NCBI GenBank assembly: GCA_963715195.1
Contig: CAVQRT010000007.1
Location: forward strand, 288,001-352,000
Length of the DNA: 64,000 nucleotides
Direction: 5' to 3'
Origin: Thermodesulfovibrionales bacterium
Lineage (GTDB): Bacteria > Nitrospirota > Thermodesulfovibrionia > Thermodesulfovibrionales > SM23-35
Part shown: positions 12,001 to 24,000 of the stretch, in pieces
How the letters are laid out: each line of letters opens with the position of its first letter
Numbering within the stretch: the stretch's first letter is position 1
Program-made: the position numbers

Positions 12001-15000
12001 GAAAATAACCTGATTGCCTCAGGATAAATCTTATGCTCCATCTCAAGTATCCTTTCCGAAAGGGTCTCCTCGGTATCATGATGGTAAACCGGTACAGCAG
12101 CCTGGATAATGATCGGTCCGGTATCCACACCTTCATCCACGAAGTGTACGGTGCACCCAGATATTTTCATACCGTAATCAACGGCCTGTCTCTGTCCGTG
12201 CAATCCCGGGAATGACGGCAGGATCGCTGGGTGGATATTCATAATCCGGTTAGGGAAGGCATCGATGAGGGGTTTTCCTACGATACGCATGAATCCGGCC
12301 AAAACAACAAGCTCCGTATTCCTCTTTCGGAGCTCATCAGAAACTTTCCCATAGAATGTGTCCCTTGATCCGAATTCTGCCGGATCGAGAACAACATATT
12401 CTATGTTGTTCTTCTTTGCTCTCTCTATCGCACCTGCAAAGGGATTATCGGTTATCAGGACTGCTATCTCTGCAGAAAGGTTCCCTTGGCGGATAGCATC
12501 GATAAGTGCCTGAAAATTTGAACCTCTTCCCGAAGCAATGACACCGATTCTCAGAACTGCTATCGTTTCCTCCGATTATAATCTGATTTCTATCCGTGAA
12601 CGTTCCCGAAGGCCTTTGATATAGCTTCTATATTTCTCTGTAAAAGCCTCTTCCTCCAGCTGCGCACGAATACTGTTATTTTGTTCATCATTGCTTTTTG
12701 CAGAGACTCGTTCCTCAAGCTTGATGATATGAAGTCCCTTGTCAGTCCAGAAAGGCATACTGACATCTCCAACCTTCATTGAGGAAAGTGCATTGATGAA
12801 TTCCTCTGCCATATCGCTTTTTTTCAGGTAACCGAGATCGCTGCCGATTTTTGCAGATGGGTCTTCCGAATATTCCCATCCCACAGCAGTAAAATCTTCT
12901 CCTGCCTTCAGTCTCTGTACAATCATAGCCGCCTTCTCTTCAATCGCAATTCTCCCGCCCTCATCCTGTGGCTTCTTAAAATAAATTTGCCGCAGCCTGA
13001 ACTCTTCCTCTCCTGCAGGATTGTCATTGTGCGCCTTCATATAGTTCTTGACCTGCTCATCAGTAACGACAACTTTTTTTCTGATCTCATGATTCACCAA
13101 CTGACTGATAAGAATCTGATCGGAGAGTCTTTTCTTGTATTCATTGAAGCTGAGTCCTTCTTTTTTCAGGGATTCCTCAAGCGCTGCGTCAGTCATCTGG
13201 TATTTCTTTTTGATATTTTCGATAGCCTCCTTCACTTCATCCTCACGGACCTGGAGACCGAGTCTCCTGGCCTCCTGCATCTGGAGCCTCATATCGATAA
13301 GCTTGTCCAGGAACTCAGCCTCGTTGCGCCTGAAAATCTCGTTCCTCTCTTCAGCATCCAAAGACCTGACCTGATTAGATGCTTCAGATTCCATGACCGA
13401 GTAAAGCTCACTCCAGGTAATCACCTCAGCATTGACCACGGCAACAACGCGGTCGAGCAATATAGCCGCATGGAGTGTTTGTTGCGAGGCTAAAAAGGCA
13501 GATGCAGCGACAAGGAATGCTATTATACACCGTTGTATCATCGAATAACTTTAATCTCTCTCCTATGCGAAAAAATGATACGGACTAATTGTATACCATA
13601 AAGAACTGCTCAAACTCAAACAGTCCTTATGCTTGTTTTTCCATAGTACTTATTCTATCATACTAAAGACCTCTCGCGAAGGCGGCTTTTAATCACGATT
13701 TTAGCCTCCTCTGTAAAATCGGTTGAAGCGTTCGTTCTCTTGAGAATACAAAAGAGATGACTTCATGATGGAAGAAACCCTTCAGAAGATACTCGATGAG
13801 AATAAGGAACATGAGGGGAATATTATCACCATCCTTCAAGGTATCGAGAAAGAATTCGGCTTTATTCCTGAAGAAGCAGTAGGCTGGTTTTCGAAGAAAC
13901 TTGATATCCCTCCAAGCCGTTTTTTTGGAACAGCAACTTTCTACTCCCAGTTTCATCTGAAACCGAGAGGCAAACACATCATTGCCGTCTGCCGCGGCAC
14001 AGCATGCCATGTGAAGGGTTCTGAAAAATTGCTTAACAGACTCCTTCTCGAACTTGACATCCCCCCTGACGAAGACACAAGTCCGGATCTAAAATTCACG
14101 GTTGCAAAGGTAAATTGCATCGGCGCCTGTGGTATTGCACCGGTCACGATGCTCAATACCACTGTACTCGGTAATACCACCCTCATGAAACTCGCAAAAG
14201 AAATTAAGAACCTAAAGGCGAATGAATAGGGAAATCATCATAAAAGTATGTACCGGAACGAGTGGTGTTGCTTCAGGTGGTAAGGAGGTATTAGCAACAT
14301 TCAGAAAGATCATTGCCTCTGCATGCATTGAAGCCACCATCTATGAAAGATGTTCAGCACAGCAGTCCGGCTGCAGGGGATTCTGCAAAAAAGACGTCCT
14401 TGTTGATGTGATCATCAATGGAGAAAAAACAACGTACACGCATATAAAACCTGACATGGCCACTAAAATCTTTGAAGAACACATCATGCATGGCATACCG
14501 GTTAATGATTGGGTTGCCGGCAAAGAATATGATGATTTCCACAAGAAACAGACAAAAGTAGTGCTCGCGTCCTGCGGAGAGATCGATCAGGAAGACATTC
14601 ACGCCTACCGTGCAATTGGAGGGTATGAAGCGTCTCAAAAAGCAATTCTGTCAATGACGCCTGGGGAGATAATCGCTGCCGTTAGGCAGTCCAATCTACG
14701 AGGACGCGGAGGCGGCGGTTTTCCTACAGGGCTGAAATGGGAACTCTGTTCACGTTTCACATCCGACATAAAGTATGTTATCTGCAATGGAAATGAAAGC
14801 GACCCAGGCGCTTTCATGGATACATCAATCATGGAGGGAAATCCGCATTCCGTTATTGAAGGCATGATCATCTGTGCAAAAGCCATAGGATCCCATCAAG
14901 GTTATATCTATACAAAAGCCGAATATTCTTTAACGGTGAAACGGTTACAGAAGGCCATTGAACAATGTTACGAAATCGGATTACTCGGGAAGGGTATCTT

Positions 15001-21000: not shown

Positions 21001-24000
21001 CTGATAATCCAGGGCTGAAGGGTGTTCCAAAAGGATGGAAGCTCTTTGTGCGGGATATTTTGACGTATAAGGGGGCGGGATTTGTCGTCCCGGTTGCGGG
21101 TGCCATTAAACTCATGCCCGGAACAGCTTCAGACCCCGCATTCAGACGTATCGACGTTGATGTCGAAACCGGAAAAGTGAAAGGCCTCTTCTGAGATCAT
21201 GAAAAAAGTCGGATTTATCTATGATGACATATTTCTGAAGCATGAGATGCCTCCCGGTCATCCGGAATCGCCGCAGAGGCTGATCGCAATCCTTGAAACC
21301 CTGAAAGCATCGGAATGCTGGGACCGGCTCATCCATATCAAACCGAGACGGGCAGGCGATGAAGACATCCTCGCTGTGCATACCGGCGATTACCTGAAGA
21401 GAATGCAAAACTTTACCGGCTTTTACGATGGAGATACCTATATCTCCGAACACACTTTTGAGGCTGCCCTGTTTGCTGCTGGAGCCCTTATTGAGGCAAT
21501 AGGCCGGTGCAAAAACGGTGAAATCGAAAGGGCATTCTGCGCCGTCCGCCCGCCCGGCCACCATGCCGAAGCAGATGCCGCGATGGGCTTCTGCATATTC
21601 AACAATATTGCGATCGGAGCCCGCTATGCCCAGAAGGCCGGATACCGGAAAGTCTTCATCGTGGACTTCGACGTTCATCACGGTAACGGAACACAGCACA
21701 TCTTTGAGGATGACGACTCGGTCTTCTATTTCAGCACCCACCAGTACCCTCATTATCCGGGAACCGGAAGTGATGGAGAGAGAGGAACGGGCAAAGGAGA
21801 AGGGTATACCTATAACATTCCCATGCCCTACGGCACGGGAGACAAGGATTTCTTTGTTGCCTATCGCGATATCCTGCCCCGACTTGTAAAAAACTTCCGT
21901 CCTGACATCATACTGGTATCAGCCGGTTATGACATCCTTCTTCAGGACCCCCTTTCCGGGTTTAAAGTGACGAGTGAAGGAATGCGGAGCATCATACGGG
22001 GAATCCTCCTGCGCTCTACTGCCACATACCTTCCGCCGCTTCCATATGTCTTTGCTCTCGAGGGAGGATACGACCTCAAAGCCCTCGGTGATTCAGTCCT
22101 TCAGACAATAAAAGAATTGCTTGAACCTTAGCTTCTTTCTGCCTTGTTTGCTTCAGGTTGATTTTTCCCTCATTGAAATAATATAATTCTTTTTAATTAT
22201 GAGGTATAAGAAGATAATCTTAAAGAAAAAGTTTATCTTTGTCACAGTTCTGTTAACTTTTCTTGTCACATTTTTCTTCTGCACGGACGTCTTCACTGAT
22301 GAAAAGAAAACCAAAGTTCTGGTCATAAGCATCAGCGGCGTCATCAACCCGGTCTCAGCAGAATTTATCGGGAAAAGTATCGGAAAAGCTCAGGAAAAAG
22401 AGGCTGAAGCTCTCGTGATCGAACTTGATACTCCGGGCGGTCTTGATACTTCGATGAGAAGCAGTGTGAAAGACATAATCGGAAGCGAGGTGCCTGTTGT
22501 CGTATTCGTTTCCCCAAGCGGAAGCAGGGCAGCCTCTGCCGGAGTTTTTCTGACGCTTGCCGCCCATATCGCGGCAATGGCTCCCGGCACCAATATCGGA
22601 GCCGCCCATCCCGTCGGCATCGGAGAGAAGATGGACAAAACCATGGCCGAGAAGGCTACAAATGATGCAGCGGCCTATATCAAATCGCTCGCCGAACGGC
22701 GCGGGAGAAATGCCCAATGGGCTGAGAATGCCGTCAGGAAAAGCATATCCGCGACGGAAAGCGAGGCGCTCAAAGAACATGTCATAGACCTTGTTACAAA
22801 GGATATTATGTCACTTCTCTCCGACATCGACGGCATGCACGTTCAGACTGCTTTTGGGGAAAAAAAGCTGAGAACAAAGAATGCGATGGTAATACGGGAG
22901 GAACTGGGGCTCAGACACAAAATTCTGAATCTGATTTCAGATCCGAACATTGCCTATGTTCTCATGCTCCTTGGCTTTTACGGCCTGTTCTTTGAACTCA
23001 CCAATCCGGGGTCTCTGTTCCCGGGCGTTATCGGGGGTATTTGCCTCATTCTCGCTTTCTATGCATTTCAGACTCTGCCGGTCAATTATGCCGGCCTTCT
23101 GTTGATCATCCTCGCGCTGATCCTCTTCATTCTCGAGATCAAGATCACATCCCACGGCATACTGACAATCGGGGGGATCATAGCAATGATTATCGGCTCA
23201 CTGATGCTGTTCGAATCTCCTGCTCCGTTTATGAAACTCTCCCTCACGCTCGTTCTGCCCGCTGTCCTCATCACCGCCCTCTTCTTTTCCGTGACCCTAG
23301 CTCTTGCATTTAAGGCACACCGGAGAAAACCGGTGACCGGGGCTGAGGGTCTCATCGGTGAACCCGGTATTGCCGATACAGATATCACCAGGGATGGCGG
23401 CATGGTTTTCCTGCATGGAGAGATATGGTCTGCATACTCGGAAGAACCGATATCAAAGGGAACCAGAATAACTGTTGACACGGTATCGGGGCTGAAAGTA
23501 AAGGTAAGGAAATCTCAGTGAAGAGATCTTCAGCATATTTTCACACGATTCACCAAGCGTAAAAAAGGAGGTATCTATGCCGTTAGCACCGTCTTTTATA
23601 AGTTCTCTCCTGATCGTATTCCTCGTTGTCTATTTTCTCTCGAGTGCGATAAAGATTCTAAAGGAATATGAGAGAGGTGTTGTATTCAGACTCGGAAGAA
23701 TTATCCCTGTCAAAGGGCCCGGATTAGTCATTATCTGGCCCATTATTGACAAACTGGTAAGAGTAAGCCTTCGAATCGTCACCATGGACGTTCCGTCACA
23801 GGACATTATAACGAAAGATAATATTACGGTAAAAGTCAACGCTGTAGTCTATTTCAGAGTTATGGCCCCGATAAAGGCAATAACAGAAGTTGAAGATTTT
23901 TATTTTGCAACATCACAGATAGCACAAACAACGCTCAGAAGCATACTCGGCCAGAGTCAGCTTGACGACCTTCTTACGAAAAGGGAAGATTTGAATGCCG

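Follow-up and report, generated by a model that had tools for sequence, protein, structure and literature searches.

The question

Why should a gene for a lone cyclic-nucleotide-binding (CNB) domain lie between the genes for a selenocysteine formate dehydrogenase (FDH) and formate-tetrahydrofolate ligase (Fhs)? The arrangement is found in a 64,000-nucleotide stretch of a Thermodesulfovibrionales contig (the window), from a lineage whose ancestor has been inferred, in one published analysis, to use formate and CO (PMC10203281). An earlier note on this DNA held the gene to be fixed at that junction and proposed a dedicated regulator or adaptor at the CO2-to-formyl-THF entry. No description of a CNB gene beside a formate dehydrogenase was found in the literature searched, supplementary gene tables apart. 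A possible precedent is HoxI of the Cupriavidus soluble hydrogenase, reported both as a CNB dimer that sits on the NuoEFG-like diaphorase module and can be dispensed with, and as an NADPH activation site (PMC3702609, PMC3189943, PMC12281615, PMC12809855).

The locus and its single-domain protein

The description of a 151-aa single-domain protein between fdhA and fhs stands: open reading frame, Pfam match, in-frame TGA and spacing (16 bp downstream of fdhA, 111 bp upstream of fhs) all agree (Table 1). This is a real gene, preceded by an AGGAGG site at 18850-18855 and under purifying selection in comparison with 8/8 family relatives (pN 0.11-0.18 vs pS 0.70-0.91). The sole Pfam match of its product is cNMP_binding (PF00027; 81 bits vs a cut-off of 27.5); no NCBIfam model reached its cut-off, and protein atlas searches returned generic PF00027 clusters only. 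The structure model (pLDDT 91.9) is a CNB fold whose C-helix is long. It most closely resembles CRP sensor domains (TM 0.79-0.82; 4ev0, 4cyd, 4a2u), and the stop after residue 151 leaves no C-terminal helix-turn-helix of the kind found in CRP/FNR proteins. The close spacing fits the single operon described previously, for which promoter and terminator scans, being at chance level, add nothing. An RNA run (X20) contains a single 151-base contig within the gene and does not establish its transcription.

Table 1. Features of the formate dehydrogenase locus, in window coordinates
Feature	Position	Strand	Details
bfuC	13765..14229	+	NuoE-like 2Fe-2S subunit; PF01257
bfuB	14222..16001	+	NuoF-like flavin subunit that has additional FeS domains; PF01512, PF10589, Fer4
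BfuB Ala282 (CGEATAL)	15065..15067	+	Equivalent to HoxF Glu341
fdhA	16088..18847	+	919 aa; Mo/W formate dehydrogenase with selenocysteine; its N-terminal FeS domains are NuoG-like
fdhA selenocysteine TGA	17195..17197	+	In-frame; context CARY-U-H; conserved in relatives
CNB gene	18864..19319	+	151 aa; HoxI-like stand-alone cNMP-binding fold; stops at the point where the hinge starts in CRP
His91 of the CNB protein	19134..19136	+	Stands where canonical CNB domains have their phosphate-binding Arg; aligned with the PKA-R cassette Arg
fhs	19431..21194	+	Formate-tetrahydrofolate ligase; PRK13507 above cut-off
Histone-deacetylase-family gene	21199..22131	+	PF00850; starts 4 bp past fhs

The upstream genes encode a putatively bifurcating module. 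The assembly splits bfuB by a frameshift, one extra base at 15458, which is missing from 3/3 independent DNA runs (X1, X2, X9). BfuB carries A232 and M234 (PGAFMD) and F367 (GAFVCGE), and the published marks of bifurcating BfuB/HydB are Ala or Glu 232, Met234 and Phe367 in T. maritima numbering (PMC7311640). The GGPSG of the SLBB domain, found in most wider relatives, reads GGPTG here and in two close relatives. The genome encodes a tRNA-Sec, and a small hairpin at 17210-17226, after the fdhA TGA, is a candidate SECIS. The histone-deacetylase-family gene is a neighbour at the family level only, adjoining fhs in 7/8 family relatives and 1/19 wider loci. The genome has four NuoEF-like modules, only one of which is accompanied by the CNB gene. 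The frameshift is absent from the earlier note, as are the HoxI precedent and the complex I-linked sister group described below.

Distribution and gene order

Across 70 loci of the class Thermodesulfovibrionia, in nearly all of which the protein has 149-153 residues, the gene lies downstream of fdhA in 49 and between bfuB and fdhA in 21. In the former arrangement fdhA is immediately upstream in 49/49 and fhs follows in 47, a second FDH cassette following the CNB gene in the remaining two; in the latter, the order bfuB-CNB-fdhA holds in 21/21, with fdhA itself seen in 20 and one contig ending first. The order fdhA-CNB-fhs also recurs in a second class, in the majority of its loci, and in a deep-branching relative whose flavin subunit is different (L254). 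Altogether, the gene is not next to fhs in 23 of the class loci.

The adjacency to fdhA is thus constant wherever it can be seen, but the gene itself is not fixed at the fdhA-fhs junction. A profile search found it in 92 of 151 class genomes, against 136 with FdhA and 147 with Fhs; the 9/9 count offered previously was conditioned on having the gene. In 21 of 24 genomes chosen by eye from presence tables, fdhA abuts fhs with no room for it. Direct reading of 14 fdhA-fhs loci gave 12 without the gene, one deleted remnant and one diverged copy. One locus (L095) has tandem FDH cassettes, each with its own CNB copy. A five-member family in which the domain is fused to a piece of BfuB (P0252) was rejected as a Rosetta-stone fusion, as a deletion within a tandem cassette explains it. 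A profile search of a representative library was swamped by multi-domain CNB proteins and gave few useful single-domain matches.

The ligand pocket

The phosphate cassette is changed, as had been claimed: the Arg of canonical cAMP and cGMP receptors is His in 70/70 class loci. The motif R-x-H-E-A, said to be the usual form, is less general than that. It was scored by script in 23 of the 49 fdhA-downstream loci (26 with three read out of register) and in 0/21 of those with the gene between bfuB and fdhA, and the window's own cassette is RKHVA. Thr63, Gln69 and Met140-Asn141 are invariant among the FDH-linked proteins. Among 79 complex I-linked relatives the cassette position is Arg in 56, His in 22 and unread in one, with at least six interchanges between the two; His alone is therefore no mark of a new ligand.

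These residues bear on the idea that the protein is a classical cAMP or cGMP receptor, through which a second messenger would control FDH. The invariant Gly81-Glu82, which would contact ribose, the CRP-like fold, the class III cyclase domains at five places in the genome and the R-S-A kept by 56/79 complex I-linked relatives are all consistent with this. However, the cassette His is universal in the FDH-linked group and often followed by Glu, and the Arg, Thr and Ser contacts of the CRP C-helix appear to be replaced. A classical receptor is thus unlikely, and the ligand is probably not cAMP. In the reported case of trypanosome PKA-R, loss of the cassette Arg accompanies lost cAMP specificity (PMC10959531). 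By analogy with HoxI, NADP(H) can tentatively be named as the leading candidate. At the position of BfuB Ala282, the change E341A forms part of the HoxF variant E341A/S342R, reported as an NADP-engineered hydrogenase (PMC12809855).

Co-divergence with neighbouring proteins

Distances between CNB proteins correlate most strongly with those of the catalytic half of FdhA (r = 0.86), followed by its N-terminal half (0.62), BfuC (0.36), BfuB (0.27) and Fhs (0.05; Mantel p 0.29), the pairs in this mirror-tree comparison (n = 20) not being independent. A larger set (n = 56) gave 0.63 for FdhA vs 0.07 for Fhs. Fhs is hence a frequent neighbour and not a co-diverging partner. The correlation drops with distance from the gene, a pattern that physical linkage alone could yield. 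No subunit stands out in 44 complex I loci (r 0.69-0.80), and the columns conserved only when the gene is present (seven in FdhA, two in BfuB, one in BfuC) or only when it is absent (5, 13 and 5) carry no signal.

The co-divergence with the catalytic half, together with the presence of FdhA or its homologue NuoG, and of no other neighbour, in every context, could suggest a chaperone that handles a guanine nucleotide or MGD and helps the molybdopterin-fold domain to mature or to receive its cofactor; a GTP-like ligand is reported at the MGD site of mycobacterial NuoG (PMC10068793). This seems decidedly unlikely, as the 21 genomes without the gene keep a selenocysteine or cysteine FdhA, and HoxU, the partner of HoxI, is described as having no molybdopterin domain (PMC3189943).

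An adaptor or sensor that links FDH with Fhs as formate is handed over would account for the prevalence of the fdhA-CNB-fhs order and would suit a class in which 138/151 genomes have acetyl-CoA synthase, but is very unlikely. A link to the FDH-Fhs junction finds no support, because the gene stays beside fdhA without fhs, Fhs shows no co-divergence with it and many fdhA-fhs loci lack it, including the 21 genomes in which fdhA and fhs are neighbours; nor is fhs near the complex I-linked relatives. What survives of the earlier proposal, and is supported, is that the protein is a dedicated partner, non-transcriptional in its role, whose ligand pocket is altered.

Relatives of the protein

The nearest relatives are encoded in complex I operons, where nuoG and nuoH flank the gene (76/80 loci, the rest being contig ends); they form the nearest sequence tier in two phyla. 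A profile of the FDH-linked proteins alone matched 18 of 351 genomes of a second phylum, 17 of the matches being complex I-linked genes; no FDH-linked copy was found in these 351 genomes, with 11 candidates scored in each. In these phyla it is common for a stand-alone CNB gene to have fixed neighbours. The Mla-linked stand-alone paralogues are separate, as had been stated, at 23-24% identity and on a branch apart.

In trees from which 23 of 74 rows were omitted (long branches and near-duplicates), the complex I-linked proteins form a separate clade (support 99/96), and the FDH, complex I and HoxI groups with three Crp/Fnr regulators split from other CNB proteins (96/89); the branch that leads to HoxI is very long. 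The FDH- and complex I-linked proteins form a single clade in only 4% of bootstrap trees, with the three regulators falling inside it; the AU test (p 0.26; 0.32 with HoxI) does not reject this topology, nor does it show it. A HoxI profile scored 69-87 bits on the complex I-linked proteins, above all 29 outgroup rows (maximum 60), and 34-57 bits on the window's subgroup, no better than on unrelated CNB proteins. Identity between the window's protein and HoxI is about 23% over 77 residues, and its neighbours are bfuC, bfuB, fdhA and fhs in place of a hoxFUYH operon, so that it falls outside the HoxI family in the strict sense. It does share the cassette His and the Tyr ending the C-helix, present in 99/113 and 109/113 HoxI proteins respectively, and its gene adjoins that of a NuoG/HoxU-homologous subunit of a NuoEFG-like module.

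The position of the three Crp/Fnr regulators, and the equivalence of the protein to the sensor and dimerisation half of CRP, would allow a transcriptional co-regulator that forms C-helix heterodimers with a full-length Crp/Fnr factor. This is highly improbable for a protein without a helix-turn-helix, encoded inside structural operons, whose nearest studied relative is an enzyme subunit. Least probable is a passenger with an unrelated role held by linkage, as frequent loss, one internally deleted copy and the fixed yet unrelated neighbours of other stand-alone CNB families might suggest, given that the fdhA adjacency survived a move from downstream to upstream, the gene duplicates with the FDH cassette and the sister group adjoins the homologous neighbour nuoG.

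A proposed regulatory dimer on formate dehydrogenase

The reading to which somewhat better than an even chance can be given, by analogy, is that of an optional, loosely bound HoxI-like regulatory dimer on the BfuC-BfuB-FdhA complex. The observations behind it are a CNB fold to which no DNA-binding domain is attached, the constant position beside fdhA, a divergence that follows that of FdhA, the fact that the gene can be dispensed with, and a His cassette and terminal Tyr common to this protein, HoxI and complex I-linked relatives. The protein would form a homodimer through its C-helix, dock loosely on the NuoEFG-like enzyme and bind a non-cyclic nucleotide, which would gate FDH activity or reductive reactivation. 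The docking site may be BfuB, BfuC and the FdhA N-terminus if HoxI is the guide, or the FdhA catalytic half if co-divergence is. A wider proposal, which must be considered doubtful, would unite HoxI, the nuoG-nuoH gene and the FDH gene in a single old family whose members sense nucleotides as fourth subunits of NuoEFG-type modules. In Nitrospirota its His form would read the NADP(H) pool and so turn the initial, CO2-reducing step of the Wood-Ljungdahl pathway on or off at the enzyme.

Should HoxI, so far a lone and little-studied case, prove to be kin to the genes linked to FDH and complex I, direct nucleotide control of NuoEFG-type modules would be widespread in anaerobes. Bifurcating formate dehydrogenases would then have a regulatory subunit lost in high-salt purification, as is reported of HoxI (PMC3189943). 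This reading also gives the CO2/formate entry step a putative ligand and a putative partner.

Comparison with known systems

HoxI of the NAD+-reducing soluble hydrogenase of Cupriavidus necator (HoxFUYHI2; H16_RS31960, pHG1), for which no solved structure was found, is the closest studied protein. Both it and the FDH-linked protein are stand-alone CNB domains, and the gene of each shares an operon with an enzyme that contains a NuoEFG-like module. Both have His at the cassette Arg (GELxxxDxxxH) and a C-helix ending in Tyr, and both are dispensable and patchily distributed. HoxI lacks Thr63, Gln69 and Met140-Asn141, however, and its partner is a NiFe hydrogenase where that of the FDH-linked protein would be a selenocysteine FDH; hoxI lies three genes downstream of hoxU (234 codons), not adjacent to it. 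Binding and NADPH activation are published for HoxI and are putative for the FDH-linked protein.

The uncharacterised nuoG-nuoH gene of some Nitrospirota and Desulfobacterota shares the Met-Asn and the terminal Tyr, and its neighbour NuoG is an FdhA homologue; it differs in its mostly R-S-A cassette and basic GRKR tail. CRP and GlxR sensor domains have the same fold and cassette Gly-Glu, but also a helix-turn-helix and Arg in place of His. Likeness of gene context extends to reported group 3b hydrogenase clusters with a CNB gene inside the diaphorase genes (Frankia Francci3_4499; Rhodococcus equi WP_013415449; PMC11879354, PMC13332983), although the enzyme class is different from FDH. Finally, MSMEG_2064 of mycobacterial complex I differs in having a response-regulator fold and is reported to bind NuoB, NuoA, NuoC and NuoI, but is an operon-encoded, stand-alone signalling-fold protein that has been proved to be an enzyme subunit (PMC10068793).

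The CNB gene and its locus

The gene for the stand-alone cNMP-binding-domain (CNB) protein begins 16 bp after the end of the selenocysteine fdhA and is followed, after 111 bp, by fhs. In all eight family relatives synonymous sites are approximately saturated while amino-acid change is low, hence the gene is real. The predicted structure (pLDDT 91.9) comprises a CRP-like beta-roll and a long C-helix, with no DNA-binding domain. Within the formate dehydrogenase (FDH, BfuC-BfuB-FdhA), bfuB looks split through one extra base, missing in all three independent DNA runs and due either to misassembly or to a private variant. 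The deacetylase-family gene beyond fhs recurs in seven of the eight family relatives, but in only one of 19 wider loci; acetylation control of C1 enzymes is possible in the window's family.

Locations of the features discussed (C, contigs of the window's own genome, G000; L, a compared locus)
Feature	Location	Strand	Remarks
CNB gene	window 18864-19319	+	151 residues; sole domain cNMP-binding
BfuB	window 14222-16001		changed nucleotide/flavin loop in the window's family
Extra base in bfuB	window 15458
Deacetylase-family gene	window 21199-22131		4 bp past fhs
Second stand-alone CNB gene	window 50026-50520	-	directly upstream of P-type ATPase
Mla-linked stand-alone CNB gene	C2:234440-234907		end of Mla-type ABC operon; intact R-S-A cassette
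Mla-linked stand-alone CNB gene	C28:8299-8766		end of Mla-type ABC operon; intact R-S-A cassette
bfuC-bfuB-CNB-fdhA module	L069:112-8183		just past nuoM-nuoN

In the second stand-alone CNB protein of the window neither the Gly-Glu nor the Arg of the phosphate cassette is present, and a near copy in the same context is found on contig C35. The separation of the FDH-linked gene from the Mla-linked ones, as drawn in the earlier note, is upheld, the latter belonging to an unrelated clade.

Gene order across the class

Seventy of the 77 matches in the class Thermodesulfovibrionia were inspected. The CNB gene immediately follows fdhA in 49, with fhs next in 47 of these and a CBS protein and second FDH cassette downstream in the remaining two. 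The other 21 loci have the order bfuC-bfuB-CNB-fdhA, and their FDH is of the selenocysteine type wherever the active site is readable. Among 151 class genomes, a profile search found the CNB gene in 92; Fhs is present in 147, FdhA in 136 and acetyl-CoA synthase in 138. In 21 of 24 genomes, picked by eye from Fhs matches and 150 of the 196 FdhA matches, such that some genomes were not judgeable, fdhA abuts fhs with too little space for a CNB gene. Of 14 fdhA-fhs loci read directly, 12 are without any CNB gene, one has an internally deleted copy and one a diverged copy followed by folD. The gene is thus not fixed between fdhA and fhs, contrary to the earlier note.

Tandem bfuCB-fdhA cassettes occur at four loci (L045, L047, L092 and L095); at L095 each has its own CNB paralogue, and at L045 the CNB gene is followed by one for a CBS-domain protein. 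A metagenome locus (L254) combines a NuoF-GltD fusion, selenocysteine FdhA, His-type CNB, fhs and a RACo activator. One protein of 339 residues (P0173) naturally carries two His-type domains in tandem, and a fusion of CNB to the N3-cluster part of BfuB (P0252, five members) is probably a deletion product. In the window's genome two nuo operons (C33 and C35) lack nuoEFG, and the FDH module might act as a complex I input module.

Proposed role and ligand pocket

The reading favoured here, if only slightly, is that a CNB dimer would dock loosely on BfuC-BfuB-FdhA, coupling FDH activity or reactivation to a nucleotide pool. Gly81-Glu82 is invariant, and the phosphate-binding Arg is replaced by His in all 70 FDH-linked loci. 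The changed cassette reported previously therefore stands, although R-x-H-E-A, described as the usual form, is found in about half of the fdhA-downstream group, and the window has RKHVA. Among 79 cassettes of CNB genes lying between nuoG and nuoH (nuo-linked), 56 have Arg and 22 His, requiring at least six changes on the tree; as His recurs in this way, it is alone weak evidence of a new ligand. In trypanosome PKA-R, PMC10959531 describes loss of cAMP specificity accompanying loss of this Arg. Class III cyclases are encoded in the window's genome; that the protein is a cAMP receptor nevertheless seems unlikely.

By analogy with HoxI, a hydrogenase CNB protein compared below, the leading candidate ligand is tentatively NADP(H). 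At the position of HoxF Glu341, BfuB has Ala in the window and seven of eight family relatives, and Glu341 to Ala forms part of an NADP-engineered hydrogenase (PMC12809855). Together with the family's own RKHVA cassette this is a weak hint of NADP(H), the two counting as one event because they co-occur in a single clade. The bifurcation marks of BfuB are present save GGPSG, which reads GGPTG in the window; CNGNESDPG replaces CNADEGDPG, and CGEATAL, shared by seven of eight family relatives, replaces CGEETAL. This last change may move the enzyme's preference towards NADP(H). A role as cofactor chaperone is a still less probable alternative to the docked nucleotide sensor.

Co-divergence with neighbouring genes

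Across 20 loci with all five genes, CNB distances correlate with those of the FdhA catalytic half (r = 0.86), the FdhA N-terminal part (0.62), BfuC (0.36), BfuB (0.27) and Fhs (0.05); in a larger set (n = 56) the values are 0.63 versus 0.07. The upstream gradient may be explained by linkage, and the correlations consequently leave the docking subunit unnamed. Yet fhs is just as much a direct neighbour of the CNB gene, and does not co-vary. This, with the 21 plus two loci lacking adjacency to fhs, argues against the proposed tie to Fhs, and makes an FDH-Fhs adaptor at the CO2-to-formyl-THF entry improbable. The fhs genes beside fdhA (L031-L111) fall into discrete types, with approximately 65, 73 and 83-88% identity to the window's Fhs; these do not follow their neighbours, which suggests that fhs has repeatedly been replaced in situ.

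Complex I-linked relatives

The next tier of CNB matches in the phylum Nitrospirota (79 of 251 genomes matched) sits between nuoG and nuoH. Of 91 loci confirmed in a survey of GTDB genomes, the 80 best were retained: 76 have nuoG immediately upstream and 76 have nuoH immediately downstream, the remainder being contig ends. A profile built from FDH-linked proteins alone matched 18 of 351 genomes of Desulfobacterota, and 17 of the 18 were nuo-linked genes. As NuoG is homologous to FdhA, every context shares one neighbour, the large subunit of a NuoEFG-type module.

In trees from which 23 of 74 rows were excluded, the FDH-linked proteins fall into one clade (95/86) and the nuo-linked proteins into another (99/96). 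Their union is recovered in just 4% of bootstrap trees, since three Crp/Fnr regulators branch between the two, and is not rejected by the AU test (p = 0.26). That the protein is itself a Crp/Fnr co-regulator is as improbable as the adaptor. In both phyla it is common for a stand-alone CNB gene to have fixed neighbours; other families in Desulfobacterota (L220-L232) accompany a ComM/YifB-like ATPase, thioredoxin reductase or OmpA-like proteins. A mere passenger gene is the least credible explanation.

Comparison with HoxI

No description of a CNB gene beside formate dehydrogenase was found in the literature searched, which included few subscription papers and no supplements. That a NuoEFG-type enzyme can carry a stand-alone CNB protein as a subunit is already known. 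HoxI is such a protein in the soluble hydrogenase of Cupriavidus necator (PMC12319191). As PMC3702609, PMC3189943, PMC12281615 and PMC12809855 describe it, the HoxI homodimer sits on the HoxFU diaphorase, itself like NuoE, NuoF and part of NuoG; it is termed an NADPH activation site or suspected regulator, high salt readily strips it from the enzyme, NAD activity does not require it, and a related enzyme lacks it.

HoxI from pHG1 shares the cassette His of the FDH-linked proteins (99 of 113 homologues), and its terminal Tyr (109 of 113) matches the tails of nuo- and FDH-linked proteins. With a HoxI profile, nuo-linked proteins score above all 29 outgroup rows and the bfuB-CNB-fdhA group at their upper edge, but the window's subgroup scores no better than the outgroup. 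The protein is therefore best regarded, by analogy of architecture, context and pocket, as HoxI-like, though outside the HoxI family in the strict sense. The FDH, nuo and HoxI groups separate with the three Crp/Fnr regulators from other CNB proteins (96/89); HoxI is on a long branch, and the AU test gives p = 0.32 for a clean FDH-nuo-HoxI clade. Common descent with HoxI is plausible from these sequences. Further analogies are offered by group 3b hydrogenase clusters that contain a CNB gene (PMC11879354, PMC13332983) and by MSMEG_2064 of mycobacterial complex I (PMC10068793). The possible link among the CNB genes of HoxI, complex I and FDH is the part that merits a specialist's test.
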